Of a DNA stretch of 64,000 bases, positions 10,082-57,515 are shown piece by piece. Source of the stretch: Candidatus Poribacteria bacterium (GTDB lineage Bacteria > Poribacteria > WGA-4E > WGA-3G). The translations under genes were made by a program, and so were the position numbers. The notes under the pieces were generated by a model, which ran no database searches, was not told the DNA's origin, and saw only the letters and a list, made by a program, of their open reading frames with translations. The DNA lies in the NCBI GenBank assembly GCA_963663765.2, contig CAXXUA010000002.1, positions 224,001 through 288,000 on the forward strand, written 5' to 3'. How positions within the stretch are numbered: position 1 is the first letter of the stretch; the number at the start of each line of letters is the position of its first letter.

Positions 10082-10399
10082 TGGTAAATTATGGAATTAA
10101 TTACACACTTGCACAGGTAGGAGCGACCTCCCGGTCGCGACCGTCCACTGAGTAGGTAGGAGCGACCTCCCGGTCGCGACCGTCCCCTGAGTAGGTAGGA
10201 GCGACCTCCCGGTCGCGACCGTCCACTGAGTGGGTAGGAACGACCTCCCGGTCACGACCGTATGGAGACCATGTATAAAAACAGTCGTGACAAGTAAATC
10301 AACGGTATGAATGCGCCTATGGCATTCCCCGGGTCGCTCCTACCAAATAAAAGAATAGAATACTTAGTAGAAATGTAAACTTATTTTCAAATTTCACCA
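10082..10399. mobile_element. MITE-like element G (imperfect TIRs, TA flanks) carrying a REP tandem array
   Basis: Left end TGGTAAATTATGGAATTAATTACACA vs reverse complement of right end TGGTGAAATTTGAAAATAAGTTTACA; TA at 10080-81 and 10400-01. Confidence 0.55.
10116..10260 (+). repeat. Tandem array of about 3.7 x 39-bp GTAG-type REP unit
   Basis: GGTAGGAGCGACCTCCCGGTCGCGACCGTCCACTGAGTA units start at 10116, 10155, 10194, 10233; inverted partial copy ends at 10344. Confidence 0.9.
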
Positions 10400-42939: not shown

Positions 42940-43110
42940 ACTATAAGAAAGGAATCCATTTATCCAAAAGAAAGACAAGTATAATAAAACATAACCGTAG
43001 TAAAAATAATTAAAAATGATACATGTGTTGATTGTCTAATACTTACAGATATCGCTGTGGGAATCTGATGAATAGAAAGTGGTAAATCATCAAAGAAAAA
43101 GGGTTGAATA

Positions 43111-43724
43111 ATGCAAAAGGACAAGTTATATCAATTCAAATAAATCTTGTCTCATTAAGGAATTCTACTGTTTACTGGCAGGGGGTTACTCTCTTCGGTA
43201 GGAGCGACCTCCCGGTCGCGACCGGGAGGTCGCTCCTACCAGATTTCCGCTGCTAATGAGACATTATCACATGAAAATGGTATAATACCAATTCAAATAA
43301 ATCTTGTCTCATTAAGGAATTCTACTGTTTACTGGCAGGGGGTTACTCTCTTCGGTAGGAGCGACCTCCCGGTCGCGACCGGGAGGTCGCTCCTACCAGA
43401 TTTCCGCTGCTAATGAGACATTATCACATGAAAATGGTATTATTTCTAATTCTAAGTGGGTGTGCAGTTTCTATTGGTGGAATATTTTATCTAAATTTCT
43501 TAGGATTTGAAGAAACCCGGTTTCGTGTTGATGTTCCCAGTTGACCAGGACCAAGTTGGGAAAAGCACAGTAAAGTTTTTGTAGCAGAATTAATCAATGT
43601 ATTTCTAAGTTTGATAGACTGAATAATACTTATTGGAATTGTCATCATTGTTGTCTTAATAGTTCTTAAGGTGGATCAAGCACTTATCGGTTCTTTTGTT
43701 CAACGAAAAAAACCTACTCCGTAA
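43111..43724 (+). pseudogene. Decayed small membrane-protein gene split by the F tandem element
   Basis: Removing F restores MQKDKLFLILSGCAVSIGGIFYLNFLG...; in-frame TGA at 43542 and 43620; ends TAA at 43722. Confidence 0.55.
43129..43439. mobile_element. Tandem pair of 154-bp MITE F units with TWA junctions, each carrying a perfect 44-bp REP palindrome
   Basis: TTA|F1 43129-43282|TAA|F2 43286-43439|TTA; period 157; TGTCTCATTA/TAATGAGACA subterminal IR; palindromes at 43197-43240 and 43354-43397. Confidence 0.85.
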
Positions 43725-43736
43725 GTACAGATATGA

Positions 43737-44105
43737 TTATATGTTTGTATCTAACAATATTCCATCCTTTATTAGCAACTGCATTTGACTTTGATTAATA
43801 AATGTAGGATTTTCGCTTTTCCTTTCAAATTGCATTAGATTTGTTATTCCTGATATGCCATCTAACGTATCATTTGTTTCAGATCGATTTTTCTCACGTG
43901 GTTTTTGCTCAATAGTGTCTTTTGTTTTGATTTTAGACATTTCTGAAGTTTTTTCCAAGTGTTCTACGCCAACGTTTCTATCAGTATATTGTTCATCTAT
44001 GGAAGCCATGACACTGTGAAACCAAAAATAGCATCCCAGTGTGAAAACGATGAGGAAACAGGTACCACCAATTATCCAGTTTTCTACGGAAAATTCTTTA
44101 AACAT
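43737..44105 (-). CDS. Hypothetical protein with an N-terminal TM anchor
   Basis: MFKEFSVENWIIGGTCFLIVFTLGCYFWF; GGAG RBS. Confidence 0.6.
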   Translation of the reverse strand: MFKEFSVENWIIGGTCFLIVFTLGCYFWFHSVMASIDEQYTDRNVGVEHLEKTSEMSKIKTKDTIEQKPREKNRSETNDTLDGISGITNLMQFERKSENPTFINQSQMQLLIKDGILLDTNI

Positions 44106-44523
44106 TTTTTCTCCCTTATATTTCCTTTGTCCATTTAGCATCTACGTGGTATTTCATATAATCTTGGATTTTCTCGGTTACAGAATTAGACACTCTGGTA
44201 AACAGATTGTTCTAAATAATTCAACCATCAATCTCAATTAACAATCAGACTTCAATAAATATTCACAACTAATAATACCTTTCTGTTATTAAAGAGACAA
44301 TAATAGCCAAAAAGGTTGCACTTTTTTCAAAAAAAATGCATTTATTTTGATTAACATCAATTATTACTTGTACTCAGACATAAGATCATGTAGGTAATGT
44401 CATGCTCTTGAAATATTTCCAACTTATTGGACATCAGTTTTGTACTCCGAGAATCTATTAAAATGAAGAAATGAATCCCTGTTCATTGCAAACAGGAACG
44501 TTACTTTACAATCTCATGTTTAC

Positions 44524-45036
44524 GGGTGTGTAAAGTTTTTGCACAGAGGTACTAACTTTTGTTCTCTTTAGTCCCGTAGGGACGCAATGTTTATAGAAAG
44601 ACGTTATCACATCCCTCTCTTTAGTTCCGTAGGAACGATATAGAAGGATAAACATATCGTCCCTATGGGACTGAAGAATATGGTTAATATTAACAATATT
44701 TCTTTATATTGACACCTAATGAGGTTTGACAATCAAAATCGGTAGTTGAATTCGTAGGGGTTGGGTTCCCCAACCCGTTGGTTTTTGAGTTTGCGTAGAA
44801 CATGTGTGGAAACCACGTCCCTACGAATACACAACTTGAACGTCAAAACTCATTAGGACTCTGTGTCCGCAATCTCTCATTTAATCAGTTGCGGCGGGGC
44901 ACAGAGACCCGGGGAATGCCAAAATGGCATTCATACCCGGGGAATGCCAAAAGGCATTCATACCGTTGATTTCTTGATTACTTGATTTCGCCCTACAATG
45001 GAGAGTGGGATGTTTGTGCAAAAACTTTACACACCC
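44524..45036. mobile_element. Composite MITE A2 containing element E (44715-44857) and a hairpin insert (44910-44988)
   Basis: TIR GGGTGTGTAAAGTTTTTGCACA; TCATGTTTAC duplicated at 44514-23 and 45037-46; inner TIR CCTAATGAG.TTTGAC; near-identical to A3. Confidence 0.85.
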
Positions 45037-45096
45037 TCATGTTTACATGTTTACTGAACGCTTGAAATTTTGACAAAAATACTGTAAACTAAATAT

Positions 45097-46461
45097 ATGG
45101 GACAATTGAGTATCATCCTAATTGCAGGTTTCTTATGTCTTTTTGCCTATGAAATACCTGAAGACATTGAAGAGATAAATACTGTGCAGACGCTTCTCTG
45201 GACTCTTCTTCTGACACTGGGTCCAGTATTGATAGCATATATTGTTACAAGTGTTGTTCCAAGAGTGCTTAAAGCTTACAAAATAATAACAGGCAAAGTT
45301 TTTTCTGATCTCGGAATATACCGTTTTGCTATAGAGTTGTTGTGTTTGGGCGGATTCATAATTAATCTTTTCATACTTGACCTGCCATTATACGTCCACC
45401 TGCATCTATTATTTTTTCCATTATATGAACTACGTCAAAGTTTATCAATAATTCCACTTATAATCAGTTTAATTGGTGTTCGTTTGGTATTTCACCAATT
45501 GAATCGTAGCAGTGGTATTCGTTATAGAGACCTTATTTCATTTCACTTGAAATTCCTGCTCATTCCACTCGTACCATTGCTAATTTATCTAACGACACTT
45601 GATGTATTGGTAAGACTTCCGGAGAATGTATTGGAGTTTCTTGGGGAACATTCCTATCTATTGTTCGGATTACTGGTTCCGGTGTTAGCGGGTGCATATA
45701 TTTTTGCACCATTGCTGATGCAGTTTATGTGGAAGACAACACCATTGAAGGATGTTGTGTTACGGGAGAAGTTGGAGAAATTGACAGAAAAGAGTAAGAC
45801 GAAATACAAAGATATTGCTGTTTGGCAAACAGGTTCTTTATTAATTGCAAATGCTGCTGTGGCGGGGACACTTCACTGGAATAGGCGTATCTTTCTCACG
45901 GACGCTCTACTACAATACTTTTCGGATGACCAAATAGAAACTATCGTCGCACACGAACTTGGACACATCCGTTATAGACATATTCCTACTTATGTTCTAT
46001 TTTCTCTATTGTACTTACTCAGTTATCCTCTTTTTTCTGTTTTTATAGAGCAACCGTTTTTGAGACTCTTTCCAGAAAATCTTGTTGAGAATTATCCAAT
46101 CGTAACTTCAATTGGTACTCTGATATTTTTTATATTGTATTTTATCTTTGGATTTAGATATGTTTCGCGGCGATTTGAACACCAAGCTGATTTATATGCA
46201 GTTTCTTTGACAAACAAACCTGAGGTGTTTATTTCTGCATTAGAACGATTAGCTATATTCAATAGCATTCCTATAACAGTTCGTCGGATTATTGAACTCT
46301 TCAATACACACCCTTCTATCCATAGACGCGTTGACTTTATAAGACGGCACATTAAAGGCGATGAATTAATTGCTCGTTACCAAAACTACCTGCTTGAAGC
46401 GAAGATTTTAGTCTTATTACTACCTATATTCTTAGCAGTAGTCCTTATTCTATTCTTATAA
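45097..46461 (+). CDS. M48 (HtpX/Ste24) membrane zinc metalloprotease
   Basis: ANA, AHELGH, RRFEHQAD, THPS, multiple TM segments. Confidence 0.9.
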   Translation: MGQLSIILIAGFLCLFAYEIPEDIEEINTVQTLLWTLLLTLGPVLIAYIVTSVVPRVLKAYKIITGKVFSDLGIYRFAIELLCLGGFIINLFILDLPLYVHLHLLFFPLYELRQSLSIIPLIISLIGVRLVFHQLNRSSGIRYRDLISFHLKFLLIPLVPLLIYLTTLDVLVRLPENVLEFLGEHSYLLFGLLVPVLAGAYIFAPLLMQFMWKTTPLKDVVLREKLEKLTEKSKTKYKDIAVWQTGSLLIANAAVAGTLHWNRRIFLTDALLQYFSDDQIETIVAHELGHIRYRHIPTYVLFSLLYLLSYPLFSVFIEQPFLRLFPENLVENYPIVTSIGTLIFFILYFIFGFRYVSRRFEHQADLYAVSLTNKPEVFISALERLAIFNSIPITVRRIIELFNTHPSIHRRVDFIRRHIKGDELIARYQNYLLEAKILVLLLPIFLAVVLILFL

Positions 46462-46474
46462 ATTCAGATTCCAT

Positions 46475-46786
46475 CTATTCAGGTTCAAGTACAAATTTCA
46501 ATTTGTCAATTGCACGATTGATTGGCAATTCGTAAAATTTTTGTAGTACCCGCAGCTCATTAGCTATGTCAAAAGCTACAAGTATTGGAATCCTTGATTC
46601 ATCATAACCCTTTTGCCGAAAACTCTCTATCCTGCTTTTTACATAAGTAACCAAGACATCAATATCCTCTGCAGTCAAGTCCTCAGTGGGTTTAATAGAA
46701 TAAGGGATACCTAATATTACAAAACGGATAGTAGACATATCTGAATCATCTTGTATTTCTTCTTCTGTCCGTTGTTCTTCTTGCAT
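46475..46786 (-). CDS. zapA: Cell division protein ZapA-like
   Basis: ILGIPYSIK...LVTYVKSRI...ILVAFDIANEL pattern, 103 aa. Confidence 0.65.
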   Translation of the reverse strand: MQEEQRTEEEIQDDSDMSTIRFVILGIPYSIKPTEDLTAEDIDVLVTYVKSRIESFRQKGYDESRIPILVAFDIANELRVLQKFYELPINRAIDKLKFVLEPE

Positions 46787-46890
46787 GCTTGTTCCTTTCA
46801 GTTATATTTCAATACTACGCCACTGCGTCTTGATTGCAAACTATGGTATTTCTAATTTAGTGAAAAAGTCATATATTTATTATTATTTAT

Positions 46891-47772
46891 TCACAAGAGT
46901 GCTTGTTGCATCGTTTCTACACACGGGGTTACACCTGTCCAACGTTCAAAGGCAATCACTCCTTGATGTACCAACATTCCGAGTCCACCCACGATGTGAC
47001 ATTGTTTTTCTGCAGCTACAGTTAATAACGTTGTCATTGGCGGAGTATATACAATATCATAAACAATAGTCTCCGATTGTAACCATTCCGGATTAATTAT
47101 CAATGGTAAAGAAGCATCCATGCTTGATGATGAAGTATTTACAAGTAAAGCACAGTTCTTAACTGCATTAGGTAATCGCGTATCTTGTAGACCCATACCA
47201 GTGAGTAAGGTCTTTTGTCCAACGTTGTTTCTAAGTGTATATGTTTTTTCAGATAGTTCTTCTGCTAACGAAATTGCTTTTGATAATGTTCGGTTTGCAA
47301 TCACAACTGAACGTACACCCGCAAATACCAATGCAACTACAATTGCCCGTGCTGACCCACCAGCACCTAATACAACAACATCCTTTCCAACTGGCACGGA
47401 TGCACCTGTTTCTTCTAATGCTCTTATGAAGCCTGGGGCATCTGTATTTTCACCATGTATCTTTCCTTCAGAAAAAGTTAGTGTGTTTACAGCACCTATG
47501 AGTTCTGCTTCCTGTGAGATAGATGAGAGAAATGGTATCACTGCTTGTTTGTGGGGAAGCGTAACATTTATACCGACAACGTTTAGTGCCTTAAATCCAT
47601 TCATTGCATCAGCAACTGCATGTTCTGATACGTTGAACGGTACATATACAAAATCGAGTCCTGCTTTTGCGAGTGCAGCATTATGCATCTGAGGTGAACG
47701 ACTGTGCTCAACTGGTGCACCGATGACACCGACAATGCAAGTACTTCCAGTGATAATATGTGACTTGTCCAT
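46891..47772 (-). CDS. aroE: Shikimate dehydrogenase
   Basis: HSRSPQMHN, NVTLPHK, GAVNT, NTD, LGAGGSAR, GMLVHQG. Confidence 0.95.
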   Translation of the reverse strand: MDKSHIITGSTCIVGVIGAPVEHSRSPQMHNAALAKAGLDFVYVPFNVSEHAVADAMNGFKALNVVGINVTLPHKQAVIPFLSSISQEAELIGAVNTLTFSEGKIHGENTDAPGFIRALEETGASVPVGKDVVVLGAGGSARAIVVALVFAGVRSVVIANRTLSKAISLAEELSEKTYTLRNNVGQKTLLTGMGLQDTRLPNAVKNCALLVNTSSSSMDASLPLIINPEWLQSETIVYDIVYTPPMTTLLTVAAEKQCHIVGGLGMLVHQGVIAFERWTGVTPCVETMQQALL

Positions 47773-47855
47773 TTGACAGATTGGAACTCTTTCAATTCTT
47801 ATTTTGATAAACTAATTATGTATTGCACATGAATAGAGTTTTTGAATTGTATTTA

Positions 47856-50800
47856 TTATGTCAACAATTTTTCAACTGTAGTTTTCGCTTCATCCATCGT
47901 CGGATAGCGAATTTCTCTATATCCACGTACGTTTTCAACACATTCTAAAGCTTTCACATGCTTTGAATAACTATCGTCGTCTGTAGGAGAAAATGTATCA
48001 ATTACTTCACGGATATACCATTCACGAAATTCTTTCTCTTTTGCATGCCATTTGGACAACCATCGTCGCAAAAACTTCATCCGTTTCATCAAGTGAAGCA
48101 TCCAATTACGTGCGTTCATGTCATGTTCAATTTCAAAACCCATCACGGTGAAATGTGGACGATTGAGATGTAGGTATTTGATTTTATCACCGTTTTTCTC
48201 ATCAACATTGTAACGAATTTTGTCCCGTGCAAGTTTTTCTTTGCTTGTCAATAGATGAGAAACATATACCTCATCCTTAATCAACATTACTTTATGTAAG
48301 TATTTTATTGCTGCTTTTGTAGCACGCAAATTATGGGAATCCTTTTCATATATCTGCTCAATTTTTTCAATATATCTTTGTGCATATTTTATATCTTCAA
48401 ACTGGATTAAGTCATAAACGTAGATTGCGAATAATCTGTTTGTGGCTTCGTCAAGACCGAGTCTTTTTACTGAATCTTCAACTATATTTTTGTATGTATT
48501 TGCGATTCTTTTTCCACGAGATTTTTCTGATAGGATAGTTCTTTTTTCTTCCAAAGTTTCCTCATAAGTCTTATTAGGAATATCGGAAAAATATTCTAAT
48601 GTTGCTTTTTCATTATTTTCGTTAATTGCAAGACGTCTACCAATCTCAAAAGCATTCATATTCTGTTCTAAATCTGAACGTTTCACCATTTGCTTCATTG
48701 CCAGTTGCATAGGTTTCAGTTCAATGGGGATCATTCCACGTTGGAATGCTACTCCCAATATCATAATATTTGCGTATAACTTAGTCCCAAACAATTGTTC
48801 TGATATATCAAATAGATTTATTCCCACATACTCATTTGTATTCTGTTGAATAGTGCTTTCCAACGAATCGGTTTCAAAACTATCTTTCCCGATGAGCGTA
48901 GACATCGTCTCATTTTTAGCAGTATTTACAACTGCATTTGTTCGTTTCATTGATGCAACTCGGAAAACAGAATCTGCAGAAATTCCTCTGACGGTTTCTA
49001 ATATATCAAGTCCTAACACCAAATCTGCTTTCCCATAAGGAATAATTGGAGATATCTTAGCATCTTTATGCGTGTAAGTAACGTGTGTATAGACCCCACC
49101 ATTGCGAATTGCTAACCCTTTCCTATCACAGAAATGAATTTCATAGCCTTGGATAAAGCCTGCAACTACGAGGATTTTTGAAATTGTTCCAATTCCCATA
49201 CCCCCAACTCCTGCAGCATAAACACTCCAAACCTTGTCAATGTTTCTTGGAGGCGGTGGTGGCAAAGGTTGACCACCATCCAAACCAATCTGCGCTAACA
49301 ATTTAGTCAATCCTGTTTCTTCCCAACTTTCATTTGATGCGTTACTTTTATCCGTGGGTTCTTCACTCAGCTGAATTGTTTGTGAACGTGGGGGACGTTT
49401 CCGTGTAACAACAACTTCTTCAAAGGATGGACAAGCATATTTAATCCTTGCACAAGCACCATCGGTAACACAGTTAGAACGGTCAATAGCAATTTTGTCA
49501 CCATAATCAGTATCAATGATTTTTAAGGCAGGGCAGCCGGTGGATTTTGTGCATTCTAAACAGAACTCACATACTTCTGGAGTAATGTTTATGTGTTTTT
49601 CTACCTTTAAAAAACCGTTTTTTTCTTTTATTGCTTGCTGCTCTCGTCTAAGCCGTCTGTGGAAAGTTATAGCACATTCTTTATCTGCTATAATAATTTT
49701 TACACCAGATTTTAAGATGGTTTTCTCAAGATATTTTTTATAGTTTACACGTTCTTCGGGATTAACCCTAACAATTGTGATTTCAGATTTCCCTGCTAAA
49801 CCTTGTGCAACTGTTTCAATATCCTGAGCAAACGTTGGATTTCCAAGAATATCCAATCCACCTGCAGGTGTCGGCTGGTGTCCTGTCATTGCTGTTGTTT
49901 GGTTATCTAATATAATGTAAGTTATATCTTGGTCATTTTTTATAGAATCGGAGATTGCTGACATTCCACCGTGGAAAAAGGTGGAATCCCCCATGAAAAC
50001 AATCTGTTTGTTGACAATGAATGGGTCAATTCCAGCACCTGCACCACCACCCAACGTCATCGCAGATAGATTATGCATCAAGCGCGGAAAGGGTTCATAC
50101 TTGAGCATTGAATAGCAACCAATATCACCATGAAAAACAAGATCCACTGGAGAAGACTTGTGGTGTTTTTCCATATAGTCTTCATCCAAGAAATGATCCG
50201 TTATTTCAAGTAGAACACTAGATGAATCTCTGTGTGGACAACCAGGACAGAAGGTAGGTGTACGTGTAGGAATGTCGGTCTTTATTTCAGCTACTTCTTG
50301 TTGTAACGCTGCTTCCTGCGAAAAAAGTTGGATATCAACAGGGGCAGTTGAAGTATAATTTCCGTTGTTTGATTTTTCTGTAAAGAGAGGTATAAGTCGT
50401 TGGATAAGAATTGAAGTATCTAATCCTGCTTCAATTGGTATACCGGACAATCCATTAGGGAACTGTTTACCCCACACATTTATATACTTCTTCAGTTTAC
50501 CTTCTTGAAACTTCTGTGTCAAATATGCCTTAATTTCATTTTCAAGGATTGGACGTTTCTCTTCAATAACAAATAATTCATCCAACTCTTGTGCAAACTC
50601 ATGAATTATATCTGTATCAAGCGGATGTGTCATACCGAGTTTCAAGATAGGAATACTGCCACTGATGTTTAATTCTGTTAGTGCATGTTCCAAATAGCAG
50701 TAACTAAATCCAGATGTAATAAACCCAATTTTCAAATTGCCGTTGTTTGTTGTGAAGTTTTCTTTGTTAGTTGTAGAATAAAGTATTTTGTTTAGACCTA

Positions 50801-51521
50801 ATCGTTTTGCTGTTTCAAGTGCGTTTGGGAGTCTTTCTTGAAGGGTTTCTATCTCAATTCGAGCAGTATCTGGTGGTAAGACCACGCGTTGCTCAGTAGA
50901 AATGAGTGTCGTATCTAATTCAGTTTGATCTATGTGACTAATTGAAGAATATTGATTTGGGTTTAATTCAACATTGCCACCACCATCTGCTTGATTCTGC
51001 GTTATTAAAAAGCATGAGTATAGATTTGCTTTTGTGGAGACTTCAAATGCAACATTTATCCAATTTTTTATCTCTTGCCAGGTCGCAGGTTCTATGAGTG
51101 GCATGTAAAGGTGACGTGCCAAAATACGTGAATCTGCAGGAACTTGTGTACTATATGACCATGTATCATCTCCAACTACGACAACGGCGCCACCTGTTGT
51201 ACCAGCAAGATTGCTAATAGCAAGAGCATCAGAAGCAACATGCATGCCGACACTTTTCATAAACGAGATTGCACGTAAATCTGCCATTTGTGAACCGTTT
51301 AAACGTGCAACACTCAATGCTTCATTGTTTGCTATTTGTGCGACAATTCCGTTTGATTTAAGGAGTTCCGCATTTCGTTGTAGAACGTCAAACACCTCAG
51401 CAAGAGGAGAACCGGGATAACCCGTCAATAGGCTAACACCGCTCTCCAATGCGCCTTTAACAAGTAACTCACAACCGGTAAAAACGTTGGTACCGTTTGA
51501 TTGTATAAACCTTTCATCCAT
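47856..51521 (-). CDS. Fused indolepyruvate:ferredoxin oxidoreductase (alpha+beta)
   Basis: GYPGSP, FCPGCPH, GDIGCY, GDSTFFHGG (TPP), CEFCLEC..GCP, GVGGMG, IKDEVYV. Confidence 0.88.
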   Translation of the reverse strand: MDERFIQSNGTNVFTGCELLVKGALESGVSLLTGYPGSPLAEVFDVLQRNAELLKSNGIVAQIANNEALSVARLNGSQMADLRAISFMKSVGMHVASDALAISNLAGTTGGAVVVVGDDTWSYSTQVPADSRILARHLYMPLIEPATWQEIKNWINVAFEVSTKANLYSCFLITQNQADGGGNVELNPNQYSSISHIDQTELDTTLISTEQRVVLPPDTARIEIETLQERLPNALETAKRLGLNKILYSTTNKENFTTNNGNLKIGFITSGFSYCYLEHALTELNISGSIPILKLGMTHPLDTDIIHEFAQELDELFVIEEKRPILENEIKAYLTQKFQEGKLKKYINVWGKQFPNGLSGIPIEAGLDTSILIQRLIPLFTEKSNNGNYTSTAPVDIQLFSQEAALQQEVAEIKTDIPTRTPTFCPGCPHRDSSSVLLEITDHFLDEDYMEKHHKSSPVDLVFHGDIGCYSMLKYEPFPRLMHNLSAMTLGGGAGAGIDPFIVNKQIVFMGDSTFFHGGMSAISDSIKNDQDITYIILDNQTTAMTGHQPTPAGGLDILGNPTFAQDIETVAQGLAGKSEITIVRVNPEERVNYKKYLEKTILKSGVKIIIADKECAITFHRRLRREQQAIKEKNGFLKVEKHINITPEVCEFCLECTKSTGCPALKIIDTDYGDKIAIDRSNCVTDGACARIKYACPSFEEVVVTRKRPPRSQTIQLSEEPTDKSNASNESWEETGLTKLLAQIGLDGGQPLPPPPPRNIDKVWSVYAAGVGGMGIGTISKILVVAGFIQGYEIHFCDRKGLAIRNGGVYTHVTYTHKDAKISPIIPYGKADLVLGLDILETVRGISADSVFRVASMKRTNAVVNTAKNETMSTLIGKDSFETDSLESTIQQNTNEYVGINLFDISEQLFGTKLYANIMILGVAFQRGMIPIELKPMQLAMKQMVKRSDLEQNMNAFEIGRRLAINENNEKATLEYFSDIPNKTYEETLEEKRTILSEKSRGKRIANTYKNIVEDSVKRLGLDEATNRLFAIYVYDLIQFEDIKYAQRYIEKIEQIYEKDSHNLRATKAAIKYLHKVMLIKDEVYVSHLLTSKEKLARDKIRYNVDEKNGDKIKYLHLNRPHFTVMGFEIEHDMNARNWMLHLMKRMKFLRRWLSKWHAKEKEFREWYIREVIDTFSPTDDDSYSKHVKALECVENVRGYREIRYPTMDEAKTTVEKLLT

Positions 51522-51546
51522 AATATAGATGATCCTTTAAATGGTA

Positions 51547-53253
51547 TTATCCATTCAATAATTCACGGGCATGTGCAAGACCGACTTCAGTCTCTTGGCC
51601 ACCGTGCATACGTGCGATTTCTGTCACGCGTTCAGAATCAGTTAGCGGTTTAGCTGTAATCAAAGTTCTTTCTTCCACGACCTTTTTTTCCACAATAAAA
51701 TGCCTATCCGCAAAACGGGCTATTTGTGGTAGATGTGTGATACATATTACTTGAGCGGTTTGTGAAAGTTCCTTCAGTTTTTTCCCTACAACATCAGCGA
51801 TTTTACCACCTATTCCACTATCTATCTCATCAAAAAGCACAGTTGGAATGTTGTCAACTTGAACCAAAACTGTCTTTAGGGCAAGCATGACACGAGAAAT
51901 CTCACCGCCAGACGCAATTTTTGTCAATGGACGCAATTCTGTCCCTACATTCGGGGCAATTAAGAATTCAACTTTATCCATTCCGTTTTCACGGAGTACA
52001 TATCGTTTGCCATCAATAAGTAATAAACCGTTTGAATCTTCAATGGGTCCAACAGAAGTTTGAAATTCTGCTTTTTCCATCCCTAACTCTTGAAGTTCTT
52101 TTTCAACTAACTTTGACAATCTCTCTGCTACAACCTTCCGTTTGTTAGACAAGGTAATACATAACTCTCGTATTACTTGTTTCATTTCCCTTATTTGTGA
52201 TTGAAGTAATTCTATCTTTTCTGAACCGAGTTCAATATTTTCTAATTTTTTCTCTGCTTCCCCTTGATATTCTAACATTTCTGAAATAGTGTTTCCGTAT
52301 CGGCGCTTGAATTTAGAAATAAGTTCAAGTCGATCTGATACTTCAGCAATTCGAGCTGGGTTAAATTCCACTGATTCTGCGTATTGAATTATCTGAGATG
52401 ATATATCTTCCAGTTCATATAACGATGAGTCTAATCTCTCACTCAAGTCAGATAAACTATCATCTACTTCAGATAGTTTCGCAACAGTTTTTGCTGCATC
52501 CCTAAGATTCTGTAATATTGAGACACTACTGGCTGAACCTATAGCACCAATATCCCCTTGTATATCACCATCCAGTTGTTCATATACAAGATTGGTTGAC
52601 TCATATAATTCTTCAGCGTTATTTAGGATTCCGATCTCTGCAGTCAATTCCTCCTCTTCACCGTTTCTGAGATTTGCCGATGAAAGTTCCTTTACCTCAA
52701 ATTCAAGTAATTCCTTTTCGCGTTCAGAAGTCCTTAATGTATGTATAAGTGTGTCTATTTCCCTTTGTAGATCAAGCAAACTACGATAGTTATCACTCAC
52801 TTGCTTACGTTCTGTATCAGTTTCGCCGAAATCATCCAATAGTTCCAAGTGTGTTTCTGTTCTAAACAAAGATTGATGTTGGTGTTGCCCATGAATATCA
52901 ACTAGGAATGAACCAATTTCTTCAAGGGATTTCAAGTTTGCCAATTCTCCATTGATACGACAACGACTTCTTCCGTTTGAACTGATATGCCTTGATAAAA
53001 ATAAAATATCCTCTGTGTCAGTATCAATTGGAAGGGGTATAGATGGAAAAACACTAATTTCAACCGATGCTGCATCAGCACCTTCGCGTACTATATCAGC
53101 AGAAGTACGTTCACCTAATACTAACGCAATTGATCTGAGAATAACGGATTTTCCTGCTCCTGTCTCACCAGTAAAAATGTTTAATCCAGGTGATAGTTCC
53201 AATTCCAATTCGTCAATCAGAGCAATGTTGCGGATAGAGAGTGTTTCTATCAC
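51547..53253 (-). CDS. recN: DNA repair protein RecN
   Basis: TGETGAGKS, HGQH, ASGGEISR, FDEIDSG, ITHLPQIA. Confidence 0.95.
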   Translation of the reverse strand: MIETLSIRNIALIDELELELSPGLNIFTGETGAGKSVILRSIALVLGERTSADIVREGADAASVEISVFPSIPLPIDTDTEDILFLSRHISSNGRSRCRINGELANLKSLEEIGSFLVDIHGQHQHQSLFRTETHLELLDDFGETDTERKQVSDNYRSLLDLQREIDTLIHTLRTSEREKELLEFEVKELSSANLRNGEEEELTAEIGILNNAEELYESTNLVYEQLDGDIQGDIGAIGSASSVSILQNLRDAAKTVAKLSEVDDSLSDLSERLDSSLYELEDISSQIIQYAESVEFNPARIAEVSDRLELISKFKRRYGNTISEMLEYQGEAEKKLENIELGSEKIELLQSQIREMKQVIRELCITLSNKRKVVAERLSKLVEKELQELGMEKAEFQTSVGPIEDSNGLLLIDGKRYVLRENGMDKVEFLIAPNVGTELRPLTKIASGGEISRVMLALKTVLVQVDNIPTVLFDEIDSGIGGKIADVVGKKLKELSQTAQVICITHLPQIARFADRHFIVEKKVVEERTLITAKPLTDSERVTEIARMHGGQETEVGLAHARELLNG

Positions 53254-53283
53254 GAGTCTTTCCTTAAATCACCTAACAATTTA

Positions 53284-54147
53284 TTATTTTATTCTTTCAC
53301 CTAACATCAACTTTTCACGTAATGCTTTGTAGTAACTATGACTCCTTGAACGGATTAGTTGAATTGTACGTTTTGCTTTACGGACTCTTATTTCTGCTTC
53401 TCTTGTCAATGTATGCGTTTCACGCATACCGTCAATAAATAGGTCAAGGCTTTCATAAGTGGAGTGCATCTCTACCTTTATCTCTGCATCCCCGTGTGCA
53501 ATAAAAGGACGCACTGTGAGACTATGAGGAGCGATTGGTGTTAATATCATTGCTTCTAACTGTGGTGCTACAATCGACCCTCCACAAGAAAGTGAGTATC
53601 CAGTTGACCCACTCGGTGTCGCTATAATCAAACCATCAGCATTATAAGGTATAAACAGTTCACCATCAACATAGGCGTTCAATTCAATTAGTCGTGTGTA
53701 GTGTCGTATAACGACATCATTCAATGCGTAAGCATGGAATGGAGAAGGACGCTGACTGTTAACAGAAACATCCAGCATCATTCTGTGCTCAATATGATAT
53801 TCACCTTTCAATGTAGCGATCAGCGACGGTTTTAATTCATCCAACGATGCGTCAGTTAGAAATCCCAGATGTCCTAAGTTAATAGCAAGAATAGGTACAT
53901 TTTCTATATTTGGCGTATGTGCTGCACTCAAAAGAGTGCCATCACCACCGAGAACAAGCACGAGATCAGACAACTCTACCATTTGTGAGATGTCTACTCC
54001 AGTTAGCGGAAATCCAAGGACTTCTGCTTGTTCATCAGGAATTATTGGAATAACATTTTCTTGCTTTAGCAACTGTGAAACTTCAACAACTACTTGTGGT
54101 GCCTGTTCTTTCGTGGTATTGACAAAAAAACCGACCTTTTTCGTCAT
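53284..54147 (-). CDS. nadK: NAD kinase
   Basis: GGDGT, GHLGFL, LND, DGLIIATPSGSTGYSLSCGG. Confidence 0.95.
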   Translation of the reverse strand: MTKKVGFFVNTTKEQAPQVVVEVSQLLKQENVIPIIPDEQAEVLGFPLTGVDISQMVELSDLVLVLGGDGTLLSAAHTPNIENVPILAINLGHLGFLTDASLDELKPSLIATLKGEYHIEHRMMLDVSVNSQRPSPFHAYALNDVVIRHYTRLIELNAYVDGELFIPYNADGLIIATPSGSTGYSLSCGGSIVAPQLEAMILTPIAPHSLTVRPFIAHGDAEIKVEMHSTYESLDLFIDGMRETHTLTREAEIRVRKAKRTIQLIRSRSHSYYKALREKLMLGERIK

Positions 54148-55142
54148 CCTGACTCCTTCTCTAATCTGCAAAACCCTAAGATTACAGCACAACCAACCAG
54201 AAATACACACAAGGTAATCAGAAAACTCATATTTAATTGTGGGAGTATATGTGCTGTATCATAACGTTTATCTCCAACCGACACAGAATCACGAAATGGC
54301 CACAAACCGTATAAAGAACCGACCATCAACCCAATTAGAAAGGAAATTGTTAAATTTCGAAAACGATCTAATAGATAGTTCAACAATCTTGTAAAAGCTA
54401 ATAGACCAAATAGACATCCCATTGAAAAAATTACGAGTATCATTAGATTGTTGACAAAAACTGAACTTGCTACTCCTTTGAATACCCCTGGAACATCATT
54501 TATGAAATCCTTGATCGCAGTCAACAGTGGAAAATAAACGCCGAATGCAAGCAAAAGAAACGAACCACTAACTCCAGGCAGAATCATTGCTGAAATTGCC
54601 AGCGCACCGCATACAAAATAGATAGTAAGTGTTCCAATTGATATTTCAATTCCATTTCCTGAAACCGTCGTTGAATCAGCAGCAGATTTTTTTAGTTCTT
54701 CTGCTATTACAATCAATCCTACTGCTACAAGTAATGTTAACAGTTCACGCCAACTGAACCCTTCCAGCATTCGTAAAGGAATCAATATAGATGTTAAGAC
54801 CAATCCGAAAAAGAAACCATAAGTCGCGTCATGGTGAGAGTCCAATAGAAAAACAATTAGTTTTGAAGAAACCAATACTGCGAAGACCGCACCTATCCCT
54901 AAAATCAACAAAAAATAAAAGTCAATACGATGCAACTCTGCGCGAAATGCTGTAAATGCTCTTTTTCTAAAACTAAAAACGCTAAGAAATCGCTTAACCG
55001 TTGATGTGCCAATGTTGTGCAAAGCTGCAATTAGTCGTTCATATATACCCAAGACAAGTGCAAGAGTGCCACCACTCATACCTGGTATTATGTTTGCAAT
55101 GCCTATCAGGAAGCCGTTAATAAAGTGGCGGATAGTTTTCAT
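54144..55142 (-). CDS. DUF368 membrane protein (undecaprenyl-phosphate translocase family)
   Basis: ANIIPGMSGGT and AMILPGVSGS repeated motifs. Confidence 0.85.
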   Translation of the reverse strand: MKTIRHFINGFLIGIANIIPGMSGGTLALVLGIYERLIAALHNIGTSTVKRFLSVFSFRKRAFTAFRAELHRIDFYFLLILGIGAVFAVLVSSKLIVFLLDSHHDATYGFFFGLVLTSILIPLRMLEGFSWRELLTLLVAVGLIVIAEELKKSAADSTTVSGNGIEISIGTLTIYFVCGALAISAMILPGVSGSFLLLAFGVYFPLLTAIKDFINDVPGVFKGVASSVFVNNLMILVIFSMGCLFGLLAFTRLLNYLLDRFRNLTISFLIGLMVGSLYGLWPFRDSVSVGDKRYDTAHILPQLNMSFLITLCVFLVGCAVILGFCRLEKESG

Positions 55143-55244
55143 ATATAAAAAGTAGCAAGTTTTATCAATTGATTAGTTTTTGATATAATCTGTCAAGAAT
55201 TATACTATATAACTAAAACTATGTCAAACGTATAAATATGAACG

Positions 55245-55432
55245 CGGGGTTATTCAGTTTTAGGCATTTAGGTATTTCCTGAGTAAATCGCGACCGGCAA
55301 AACAAGAAATCAACGGTATGCATGCCTTTTGGCATTCCCCGGGTATGCATGCCTTTTGGCATTCCCCGGGTCGTTCCTACCGCGGGATTTCTTTTTTGAA
55401 AATCCAAAAATTAGGAAAACTGAATAATCCTG
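55245..55432. mobile_element. MITE B4 (degenerate TIRs) with a REP interrupted by a tandem hairpin insert
   Basis: CGGGGTTATTCAGTTTT...AAAACTGAATAATCCTG; no clear TSD. Confidence 0.7.
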
Positions 55433-55440
55433 TTAAACTA

Positions 55441-55869
55441 GGGTGTGTAAAGATTTTGCACAGAGGTACAAACTTTTTTCTCTTTAGTCCCGAAGGGACG
55501 CAATGTTTATAGAAAGACGTTATCACCCCTCTCTTGAGTTCCGTAGTAACGACATAAAAGGATAAACATATCGTCCCTACGTGACTGAAGCGTATGGTTG
55601 ATATTAACAATATTTCCTTATATTGACACCTAATGAAGTTTGACAATCAATCGGTAGTTGAATACGTAGGGGTTGGGTTCCCAACCGTTTGGTTTTTAAG
55701 TTTGCGTAGATCGGGCGTGGCAACCACGCCCCTACGAATACACAACTTGAACGTCAAAACTCATTAGGACTCTGTGTCCCCGCAATCTCTTATTTAATCA
55801 GTTGGGGCGGGCACAGAGCCCCGCCCTACAATGAAGAATGAGTAGTTTGTGCAAAACTTTTGCACACCC
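55441..55869. mobile_element. Composite MITE A3 containing element E (55629-55768)
   Basis: TIRs; GTTAAACTA at 55432-40 and 55870-78. Confidence 0.88.
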
Positions 55870-55886
55870 GTTAAACTATTAAACTA

Positions 55887-56088
55887 CAGGGTTATTCAGT
55901 TTTAGATATTTTGGCAGATATTTATAACATTCGTGATTTAATATCGTAGGTCGGGTAGAGCGTGAGCGAAACCCGACATGATAGACAAAATCAATACATG
56001 TCGGGTTTCGCATACGCTCTACCCGACCTACTATATAAACTTTAAGTAACACCCATTAACTGATAATTCTTAAAACTAAATAACCCTG
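55887..56088. mobile_element. MITE B3 with REP doublet
   Basis: TIRs; ATTAAACTA at 55878-86 and 56089-97. Confidence 0.88.
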
Positions 56089-56105
56089 ATTAAACTATAT
56101 CTCAC

Positions 56106-56134
56106 TTGACAAGTTTTCAAAAGCCTGTTAGAAT
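56106..56134 (+). promoter_or_regulatory. Sigma70 promoter of the TPR gene
   Basis: TTGACA-N17-TAGAAT with TGn. Confidence 0.6.
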
Positions 56135-56165
56135 CTGATTGAAATTCTAATTCATAGTCTAAGAG

Positions 56166-57515
56166 GTGAAATTGATGAAAAAGTTGATCATCGTGGAAAT
56201 CTGCGTTGTTTTAGCAATTGCCGTTGGATTCTGGATCGGACGGTTCACGAGTCCGTATAATGATTATGCGCATTATTACGAAAATGCCGATATAGCGTGG
56301 TTAAAAGTTCAGGAAATGGACACACCTCCAATATCTTTTGATGAACCCGATAAGAATCGCTTGCGTAAAGTGCGCGCGGCATACCGTGCGGTTTTTGACA
56401 ATTATCCTGACAGTCGGTGGGCAGACGATGCAATTTACCAGTTAGCGTCACGCATACCCCGCACAGATGAGGAAGGATTTGCACTATTCCGCAGATTAAT
56501 CCGCGATTATCCCGACAGCGAATATGCAGATGACGCAATGTTTGCAGTTGCTATCGCAACCTATCAGATCGCAGAGGAATTTAAGAAAACCGGAACGCTG
56601 GAATCTCCAACTGCATATTACGACAGAGCGCTTACACTCTTTAACCAAATCATAACAATATATCCAGGTAGTGTCTTGCACGAAGAGGCGCTGTATAACG
56701 CAGCCATGTGTTACTATCGACGTGGAGATGTAAGTATTGCACTAAACCAACTTGAAAGTCTCAAGATAGAATATCGAAACCATCCAATTATTTATAAAAT
56801 CCGGTATACACTTGGATTGATCCATCTTGGACAGCAAGACTACGAGAACGCGAAAGCAGAATTCCTAAATGTTATAGATGCAGGCGATCCTGAATATGGT
56901 CCGATAGCGAATTTTGACATCGCTAACACTTATTTTAACGAAGGTAAAAAAAGAGAAATAGAAGCTAATTTTAAGGAAGTACAAGGAATAGGTCAGGAAG
57001 CAGCAGCAGAAAAAAAAGAAGCAATGGAAAAATACCAAGAAGCCGTTGATGGATACCAAAAAGTGATAGACCTATACCCTGATACAAAAGTCGGGAAGGA
57101 CGCACTTTTCTATATTGCATTACCTTTAGAGAAATTAAAAAAGTATGATGAAGCTATTACGCTATTAGAAGCTGCAATTGAGTCATATCCTGATAACGAG
57201 AACGCTACCTATTCCAAGTCTTTCATCGGTCAGCTTGCCTATCTCAATGACGACAAAGCAAAGGCAATTGAGGTATTTCAAGAATTTGCCGATGACCCTT
57301 CACACGCTTATGATGACAGACTACACGCACAATACCAAGTCGGTAAAATCTATGAAGAAATAGAGGATATGGAACAAGCTATTGATGCATTTGAAAAATT
57401 GGTTTCAAATGATTATCCTGAACCCCATAAAAACCCATCACATCCATCACGTAGCATTACTGAGAATTACGTTCAACAGTTAAAAGCAGAATTATTGGAT
57501 GAAGCGCTTGAATAA
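56166..57515 (+). CDS. Membrane-anchored TPR protein (BamD/CpoB-like repeats)
   Basis: N-terminal TM; repeated YPDS..ADDA / YP-x helical repeats. Confidence 0.85.
   Translation: MKLMKKLIIVEICVVLAIAVGFWIGRFTSPYNDYAHYYENADIAWLKVQEMDTPPISFDEPDKNRLRKVRAAYRAVFDNYPDSRWADDAIYQLASRIPRTDEEGFALFRRLIRDYPDSEYADDAMFAVAIATYQIAEEFKKTGTLESPTAYYDRALTLFNQIITIYPGSVLHEEALYNAAMCYYRRGDVSIALNQLESLKIEYRNHPIIYKIRYTLGLIHLGQQDYENAKAEFLNVIDAGDPEYGPIANFDIANTYFNEGKKREIEANFKEVQGIGQEAAAEKKEAMEKYQEAVDGYQKVIDLYPDTKVGKDALFYIALPLEKLKKYDEAITLLEAAIESYPDNENATYSKSFIGQLAYLNDDKAKAIEVFQEFADDPSHAYDDRLHAQYQVGKIYEEIEDMEQAIDAFEKLVSNDYPEPHKNPSHPSRSITENYVQQLKAELLDEALE

Follow-up and report, generated by a model that had tools for sequence, protein, structure and literature searches.

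A hairpin repeat of about 35 nt nested within the repeats of a Poribacteria genome: junctions, hosts and a tentative case for mobility

Copies of M in the window and their surroundings

The present study concerns the stretch of contig C2 from 224001 to 288000 (64,000 nt, hereafter the window) in a Poribacteria genome of 6.35 Mb (15 contigs, ~41% G+C, 97.8% complete), and a family of very small hairpin repeats found within it, which is given the working name M. Three copies of M are present in the window, two within repetitive extragenic palindromes (REPs) and one within a miniature inverted-repeat transposable element (MITE):

10291-10295, + strand: truncated octamer CAAGT, directly before the head of the site 1 copy
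10296..10331, + strand: M copy, site 1; one AAATCAAC head and one long-loop unit (GAATGC-GCCTAT-GGCATTC), lying in REP-E between …GTCGTGACAAGT and GGTCGCTCCTACC, with a REP-E tandem array upstream of M
44514..44523, + strand: left copy of the 10-bp target duplication of the MITE, TCATGTTTAC; right copy at 45037-45046 (direct reading)
44524..45036, no strand assigned: host MITE of family F, subfamily F1; 513 bp with perfect 22-bp terminal inverted repeats (TIRs) at 44524-44545 and 45015-45036
44910..44988, - strand: M copy, site 2; three head octamers, AAATCAAG-TAATCAAG-AAATCAAC, and two hairpin units, GGTATGAATGCC-TTTT-GGCATTCCCCG and GGTATGAATGCC-ATTTT-GGCATTCCCCG, between the host flanks GTAGGGCG and GGTCTCTGTGCCCCGCC
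55299..55368, + strand: M copy, site 3; octamers AAAACAAG-AAATCAAC and two identical units, in a REP-E-like context between TCGCGACCGGC and GGTCGTTCCTACC

These copies had been noted in a first-pass annotation of the same DNA, and all three were found by direct reading where that annotation had placed them. The 14-mer GGCATTCCCCGGGT occurs five times in the window against 0.14 expected, a number reached in none of 100 shuffles. Both units at site 3 carry the arm variant GCATGCC, and the sharing of this variant points to a probable local tandem duplication; the site is spanned gap-free by contigs of the runs X3 and X6 and is identical in both. The host at 44910 had been taken for a bare REP and is really a GTAG-tagged hairpin inside the 513-bp MITE, itself a mosaic whose other parts include REP-B hairpins and a second small element with inverted ends. 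This second element (window 44715-44857) has 22-nt ends, CCTAATGAGGTTTGACAATCAA, that are 86% complementary, and its copies elsewhere are 93-95% identical. The inverted ends of the MITE read GGGTGTGTAAAGTTTTTGCACA, and at least seven full-length relatives are present in the genome with 84-97% identity. A partial copy of the left 390 bp of this MITE family, ~91% identical, is also found at 55441-55823, 70 bp downstream of M at site 3.

Architecture, abundance and junctions of M

The layout of M can be written as (AAATCAAG)n-AAATCAAC-(GGTATGAATGCC-loop-GGCATTCCCCG)m with a loop of 3-6 nt, and in forward-strand copies it reads [C/G]-AAATCAA(G-AAATCAA)n-C followed by the hairpin units. The smallest form, C/G-AAATCAAC-GGTATGAATGCC-loop-GGCATTCCCC, is ~35 nt long. 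The head AATCAAC is fixed and the hairpin is REP-like (GGTAT plus a 7-bp stem). Among 43 sequences, the stem is preceded by the tetranucleotide GTAT (G, T invariant; A, T at least 90%), and the invariant block comprises AAATCAACGG plus most of the stem. Moreover, the M unit resembles that of the resident REP-E (GGTATGAATGCC versus GGTAGGAGCGACC). When searched for genome-wide, with two mismatches allowed per arm, M proved to be a dispersed family of 488 loci. One unit is present at 381 loci, two at 91 and 3-11 at 16; the multiple units stand head-to-tail (107 of the 488 loci with 2-11 direct units), and a few inverted pairs, uncounted, were noticed in other genomes (e.g. L036). The head octamer occurs once in 245 loci, twice in 158 and three to six times in 52, and no head was parsed in the other 33. 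Whole modules are also arranged head-to-tail, the joint running from …CCCC into CAAATCAAC.

The 79-nt copy at site 2 folds as DNA with -17.5 kcal/mol (z -4.4), and the single-unit copy at 10291 folds no better than its shuffles (z -0.5). Compensated changes are observed in the stem: the variant GAATGCT/AGCATTC is doubly changed in 22 copies versus 7 half-changed, and the variant GAATACC/GGTATTC is doubly changed in 19 versus 10 half-changed. In a cross-genome alignment, which was seeded with the exact 5' pattern and leans towards the consensus, 96.7% of the cells are paired and three pairs are altered on both sides, a result matched by none of 500 shuffles. In addition, a hairpin follows AATCAAC at 577 of its 2347 occurrences (24.6%; 3.3-4.6% in four control heptamers). 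The stems behind this heptamer are of at least four kinds, namely those of M, M2, M3 and the GTCAGAAGCGC hairpin. Such a combination of conserved head and co-varying stems is familiar from tagged REPs. No Rfam family reached its gathering score in the window, with only chance-level matches at 44500-45100. The head AAATCAAC holds ATCAA, the core of the consensus bound by integration host factor, WATCAANNNNTTR; together with the following bases, one specified position is missed.

M was found in all 40 genomes of the genus, in numbers ranging from 2 to 484 copies (19-mer, at most one mismatch), and 16 genomes from seven further genera of the order lacked a 20-mer of M. With a covariance model derived from 43 copies, M was recovered in 28 of 28 genomes of the genus and in 21 of 21 of the sister genus, in none of four genomes of three further genera of the family, and in one of 47 genomes outside the family. 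This sole outside match, in a genome of another genus and family of the order (G086; 88% complete, 5% contamination), is a single one with full score and could reflect contamination or transfer. The sequence of M barely changes between genomes in which orthologous genes are only 68-88% identical. Viral contigs yielded one exact 19-mer match in a stretch that has no 3' hairpin half, and this was rejected as a chance match.

The hosts of M could be compared with their own uninterrupted copies. Paralogous empty sites are present for every major host family, and the inserted string is thus readable. M is almost always inside another repeat, with entry points within REP hairpins, loops of M-like hairpins and a MITE or at the foot of such repeats, and sorting of the flanks revealed at least nine host contexts in the genome, as follows (^ marks the point of insertion):

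Context A: REP-A, whose 15-mer GCGCTTACAAAGCAC occurs 1633 times, with M in ~190 copies; junction GCAC^GCCTAC, clean C^G
Context B: M in the loop of the M-like hairpin M3; junction GCGC^GTATGG, clean C^G
REP-B: itself carries M3, with 124 filled copies among 796 motif matches; junction CCTAC^GGGAC, clean C^G, for the variant M3
Context C: second site within REP-A; junction CGC^GCTTAC, C^G with one substitution
Contexts D2 and REP-D loop: host repeats of M
Context E: the REP of window sites 1 and 3
Context F: the MITE of window site 2
Context H: further host; junction GGTC^GGGTAG, clean C^G
Context I: further host; junction C^G, read from filled copies, the empty form being found only at another genome's locus
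Context G: further host

In six of the nine contexts, the string C-AAATCAA…GGCATTCCCC is inserted cleanly between C and G, as is also the case in the REP-D loop of other species (AATC^GGAG). The F2 MITE is entered just as cleanly at G^G, by a string that lacks the leading C, and in contexts E, D2 and G the target is short of one or two bases or the string begins with another base. No target duplication is found at M in the empty and filled pairs, and the ends of M (AAATCAA… and …CATTCCCC) are not inverted repeats. The absence of TIRs and of a target-site duplication (TSD), as first annotated, was thus confirmed on both the window copies and the empty/filled pairs. The annotation had also described one precise and one ragged junction, and this description holds across contexts: the right end is exact, with …CATTCCCC followed by G, and the left end varies in octamer number, in its first base and in the loss of 1-2 target bases. 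These properties together argue against a cut-and-paste transposase of the DDE type. The left flank ends with C in most contexts, preceded by variable bases (CAC, TAC, CGC, GTC, ATC). The claim that one end always abuts GGTC or GGTA is correct within the window and fails genome-wide, where …CATTCCCC is followed in most copies by G and the sequence then reads CCTAC, GGTC, GGAT, TATGG, TGTGG or others. The ACC motif suggested as a target does not hold generally; what recurs is entry 5' of a G, mostly at C^G. No homology beyond one base is shared at the junctions across unrelated hosts.

The range of hosts is wider than the two REP types first reported, with at least nine contexts in the source genome and 63 distinct ones among 94 M loci of other Poribacteria, many of the latter contexts not known from the source genome. 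In the source genome, 470 of the 488 loci lie outside crude open reading frames (ORFs). With respect to neighbouring genes M shows no preferred orientation (157 in the same direction, 130 in the opposite one), and its frequencies in tandem, divergent and convergent spacers (287/127/47) track spacer length. Unique 14-mers flank M on both sides at only 21 loci, which by reading are mostly diverged members of known host families. Placement of M in the loop of a host hairpin is a tendency, with about twofold enrichment; as a general rule it was rejected. Loop variants of M are biased by host family, TATT being present in 15 of 19 D2 copies and ATTAA in 42 of 71 B/I copies, which indicates that most M copies descend from composites multiplied whole.

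Independent filled and empty pairs would distinguish M from a fixed part of one ancestral repeat, and such pairs were observed. In F2, the sister subfamily of F1, copies inserted at separate unique loci match one another almost completely along ~400 bp, M being the sole difference; it is either absent or present as one of three alleles, which combine one short head with a single unit, two heads with a single unit, or two heads with two units. When 51 F copies were placed in a tree by their flanks only, both deep clades proved mixed (13 empty and 5 filled; 20 empty and 13 filled), and well-supported branches force at least two changes between the filled and empty states. Within this family, M is gained or lost repeatedly and independently of its host. 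Other hosts also provide such pairs. At the 44910 locus itself, the MITE at 44524-45036 is missing as a whole from the orthologous spacer of the two closest genomes, G045 and G016, both of which keep the two flanking genes; M therefore reached this locus as a passenger. The orthologue of site 1 in G045 holds other repeats, plus an M in a different host and in the opposite orientation. No clean orthologous filled/empty pair was found in comparisons with G045, G016, G044, G006 and G051, in which the spacers are wholly turned over.

Along the chromosome, M runs in long one-orientation stretches with switches, two examples of which (~760 kb of C4 and 300 kb of C6) coincide with turns of the cumulative GC skew. 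With clusters collapsed, two M copies separated by 3-60 kb have the same orientation in a fraction of 0.63-0.64; the corresponding values are 0.56-0.74 for GTAG REP families and 0.52 at 20-60 kb for long ORFs. M clusters are concordant with local GC skew in 160 versus 114 cases (58%, p 0.0065), and a comparison of four large segments with GC skew gave mixed results. These observations weakly suggest that the orientation of M is linked to replication, as for REPs.

The moving enzyme and the origin of M

Herein, we tentatively propose that M is a very small non-autonomous mobile element that enters REPs and MITEs by a route independent of DDE transposases and afterwards multiplies along with these hosts; doubt about this proposal is at least as strong as our confidence in it. 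Such an element would be cut and joined on single-stranded DNA by a trans-acting nuclease that reads the head plus the hairpin, the tag and hairpin of HUH/Y1 systems serving as the model, and the enzyme would probably not be among the REP-associated tyrosine transposases (RAYTs) to which the GTAG REPs belong. A copy of M inside a host repeat would then be multiplied as a passenger when the host spreads, and the 8-nt head and the 27-28-nt unit would expand locally by slippage. In other words, M behaves as a parasite of other genomic parasites.

Several candidate enzymes had been suggested by the first-pass annotation, and none of them could be linked to M. The Y1 content of the genome comprises three IS605-type copies (TnpA plus TnpB), one broken copy, one complete RAYT and one RAYT fragment. 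The ends of the resident IS605 copies carry other hairpins, unlike M, and these elements were rejected as its parent because the ends differ. The RAYT genes are flanked by GTAGG REP arrays, RAYT-D by REP-D and RAYT-A by REP-A, and not by M. The IS110 recombinase domain (PF01548) gave no match in the genome and did give matches in control genomes, and RVT_1 gave no match (E 1e-5 or better) in this genome, which holds the most copies, with RVT_1 present in 18 of the 40 genomes of the genus. A search for IS91-type Y2 transposases was likewise negative in the genome and says little, as it was blank in the control genomes also. The search for a longer M that carries a gene was negative, the unpaired 5' halves enclosing only other repeats or nested hairpins. 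Among the Y1 genes themselves, RAYT-D is a complete ORF of 225 aa at C4:621.6 kb, and in its locus (C4:620161-623487) dozens of REP-D/D2 hairpins (GTAGGAGGGAACTCCGATTCCCGAC, GTAGGAGCGATCTCCGAATCGCGAC) are arrayed on both sides, forming a very large REPtron. RAYT-A is a fragment with an apparent frameshift at the very end of contig C10, behind a REP-A array, and one of the IS605-type copies (C5:351559-354873) is cut after tnpA by a 387-aa ORF that by its appearance resembles a DDE transposase, which would make this a case of one insertion sequence lying within another.

A number of observations weigh against the proposed mobility. No enzyme is linked to M and no REPtron-like link exists: of 26 RAYT loci (19 genomes), which are rich in GTAGG repeats, no more than 3 have an M copy at a distance of up to 1.5 kb. 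A Y1_Tnp match is present in 36 of the 40 genomes of the genus, and the four genomes with none (three 92-97% complete and one 73%; one of the four a single contig) hold 47, 137, 191 and 122 copies of M. Over the 40 genomes, the Y1 count and the M count are uncorrelated (rho -0.04, p 0.81). The TnpA-REP protein of Escherichia coli cuts at C^T, dictated by A3 and G4 of GTAG, as reported in PMC3479197, and the M junctions are not C^T, which is the sole measured RAYT cleavage rule. The strand bias of M is weak beside that of IS608-type elements, GC skew being here a poor proxy for the direction of replication. No M copy was found in clearly unique DNA, as judged from the flanking 14-mers of the 488 loci, and the preference for hairpin apexes is only about twofold (13.7% and 20.6% of contexts versus 8.2% of control CG sites). 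The primary insertions in the genome may number a few dozen rather than hundreds. Finally, no population polymorphism and no excised M were seen in four runs covering window 43001-57000, which were available as Logan contigs only, and these break at repeats; one Logan joint that skips 44911-44988, with repeated flanks, probably comes from empty paralogues.

The lack of M in unique DNA would also be expected if M were not self-mobile at all, being a REP-derived module that is shuffled by rare recombination, gene conversion or RAYT strand transfer into mosaics of the kind known from bacterial interspersed mosaic elements (BIMEs) and spreads only with its hosts. This explanation is possible, and we consider it somewhat unlikely. 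It is consistent with the host-biased loop variants and the amplification of composites as a whole, with the modular, mosaic structure of the intergenic regions, with the likeness of the M unit to REP-E, and with hybrid loci whose flanks derive from two host families (by reading, ~10-15 of 455); moreover, TnpA-REP is reported to be capable of strand transfer in vitro (PMC3479197). A shuffled module is harder to reconcile with exactly the same boundaries in at least nine unrelated hosts and 63 contexts elsewhere at a junction homology of at most one base, with the near-constancy of M over two genera while the hosts differ, with the 47-191 copies in genomes that have no Y1 transposase match, and with the departure of the junctions from C^T. 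The same departure bears on a further explanation, that M is a true REP mobilised in trans by the resident RAYT-A or RAYT-D. The genome does hold one complete RAYT and a RAYT fragment, M and REP-E have the architecture G-GTA(T/G)-stem-loop-stem in common, M in context A stands next to CCTAC, which is GTAGG read on the opposite strand, the REP-A array upstream of RAYT-A includes one M, and the orientation polarity of M is similar to that of REPs. Nevertheless, the tag beside the stem is GTAT and not GTAG, insertion occurs at C^G, C^C or G^G and not at C^T, RAYT-like genes were found with the present query in only 19 of the 40 genomes, and the small number of RAYT loci near M, the four M-bearing genomes with no Y1_Tnp match and the lack of correlation noted above all make mobilisation by a resident RAYT improbable.

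The near-identity of M over two genera, its presence in every genome searched of those genera, the compensated stem changes, the placement of nearly all loci outside crude ORFs and the possible integration host factor core in the head might alternatively reflect a cellular task, M being kept as a binding site for a nucleoid protein or recombinase or as a structural signal in RNA or DNA. With copy numbers ranging from 2 to 484 within one genus, no orientation bias to genes, a split over spacer types that follows length, no T-run after the hairpin and no Rfam match, such a task is quite improbable, and a positional function is hard to square with placement in selfish repeats. Target-primed reverse transcription of a small RNA is a very unlikely source of the M copies. 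The pairing of an exact with a ragged junction, with 1-6 octamers at the end that would be synthesised last, is what this process would leave behind; against it, RVT_1 is missing from the 97.8%-complete genome with the highest copy number and from 22 of the 40 genomes of the genus, and slippage explains the octamer and unit numbers more simply.

Returning to the preferred reading of M as a non-autonomous mobile element, the two bases before the paired region are CG (…AACG-G…), which by the RAYT rule would specify C^G; TnpA-REP of E. coli is a precedent for a tag that sets a two-base cut, and the match with M is a testable coincidence and not evidence. In an extended and rather unlikely form of the reading, M, M2, M3 and the GTCAGAAGCGC hairpin would constitute a new superfamily of tagged hairpin transposons in which AATCAAC plays the role of GTAG, the enzyme acts on single-stranded DNA and lies outside the known Y1, reverse transcriptase and IS110 groups, and …AACG sets the C^G cut. 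If this were true, M, at ~35 nt, would rank with the smallest known transposable units and would depend obligately, as a parasite, on REPs and MITEs.

Relation to known small repeats

The REP/RAYT system, for which Nunvar 2010 is reportedly a source, is the first known system with which M can be compared. Like REPs, M is a short imperfect extragenic hairpin with hundreds of copies and a lineage-restricted distribution, has a conserved single-stranded tag 5' of the stem and no TIR or TSD, and forms clusters and mosaics. Unlike REPs, it carries the tag AATCAAC (GTAT beside the stem) and not GTAG or CGTC, its units tend to stand head-to-tail and not as inverted doublets, and its junction rule is C^G and not C^T. 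Moreover, no RAYT gene is flanked by M, M is present in genomes that have no detectable Y1 transposase, and it lives inside GTAG REPs of the same genome. REPs and REPINs with RAYT transposases are described as GTAG-tagged palindromic repeats (Bertels & Rainey 2011, PMC3116915; Di Nocera 2013, PMC3733652; Messing 2012, PMC3479197), and the regular insertion of some REP families within other palindromes is noted for three species in PMC3733652.

M can likewise be compared with the very small hairpin repeats of Nostocaceae. Elhai et al. 2008 (Genome Res 18:1484) are said to have described the small dispersed repeats SDR4-6 of this cyanobacterial group as hairpin repeats of ~21-27 nt that occur inside other repeats and were proposed to be mobile. 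M resembles these repeats in being a very small hairpin inside other repeats, a resemblance of function and not of sequence; it differs in its unrelated sequence, in belonging to another phylum, and in having a separate, reiterated head together with a tandem unit. For SDR5, insertion at the short palindrome HIP1 is reported (PMC5861425). The Nostocaceae SDR family is, in our assessment, the nearest functional analogue of M, and REPs and these SDRs together come closest to it among known repeats.

IS608 and ISDra2, of the IS200/IS605 family, have hairpin-based ends and insert in an oriented manner next to a short target with strong strand bias. M shares with this family and with its miniature derivatives, the palindrome-associated transposable elements (PATEs), the absence of TIRs and TSDs, a hairpin-based end, apparently oriented insertion at a short target and some chromosomal polarity. 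However, single-unit M (381 of 488 loci) has one hairpin instead of a pair at the two ends, no constant tetra- or pentanucleotide is apparent on its left, and its strand bias looks weak (58%). The BIMEs of E. coli and the BOX elements of pneumococci are similar to M in their modular build, the variable number of internal modules and the mosaics formed in one spacer, whereas M is a single module found at exact positions in many unrelated hosts with empty paralogues, and is insertion-like. M also differs from MITEs of the DDE type in having neither TIRs nor a TSD, both of which are present in the host element at 44524-45036.

Within the literature joining Poribacteria with REP terms, no description of M or its host repeats was found. 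The movement of very small bacterial repeats, including REPs and SDRs, is largely unsolved, and M provides an unusually clean natural data set for this problem, with an exact boundary, a simple target rule, many hosts with empty and filled copies, and copy numbers from 2 to 484 in one genus. Because M is present in genomes with no detectable Y1 transposase or reverse transcriptase, phylogenetic profiling could point to an unrecognised DNA-processing enzyme. M also represents a second layer of parasitism, a mobile hairpin inside mobile repeats, in a sponge symbiont with intergenic DNA dominated by such elements. In practical terms, M and its hosts break short-read assemblies of Poribacteria, and masking or modelling of these repeats is advised.

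Further nesting and reiteration were observed in the same intergenic DNA. REP-A (GCGCTTACAAAGCAC plus GCCTACC or GCCTGCAG) often forms long tandem arrays with a period of ~31-46 nt, for example at window 10110-10260 and at L100 900-1310. Onion-like palindromes are also present, in which a 32-nt hairpin, CATGGAGCATGCCATACGCGCATGCTTCTTTA, occupies the loop of an M unit at ~37 loci (e.g. C3:7998; C7 minus strand 41349), and further hairpins of the GAAT(G/A)C type are nested within this CATGGAGCATGCCATACGCGCATGCTTCTTTA hairpin in turn.

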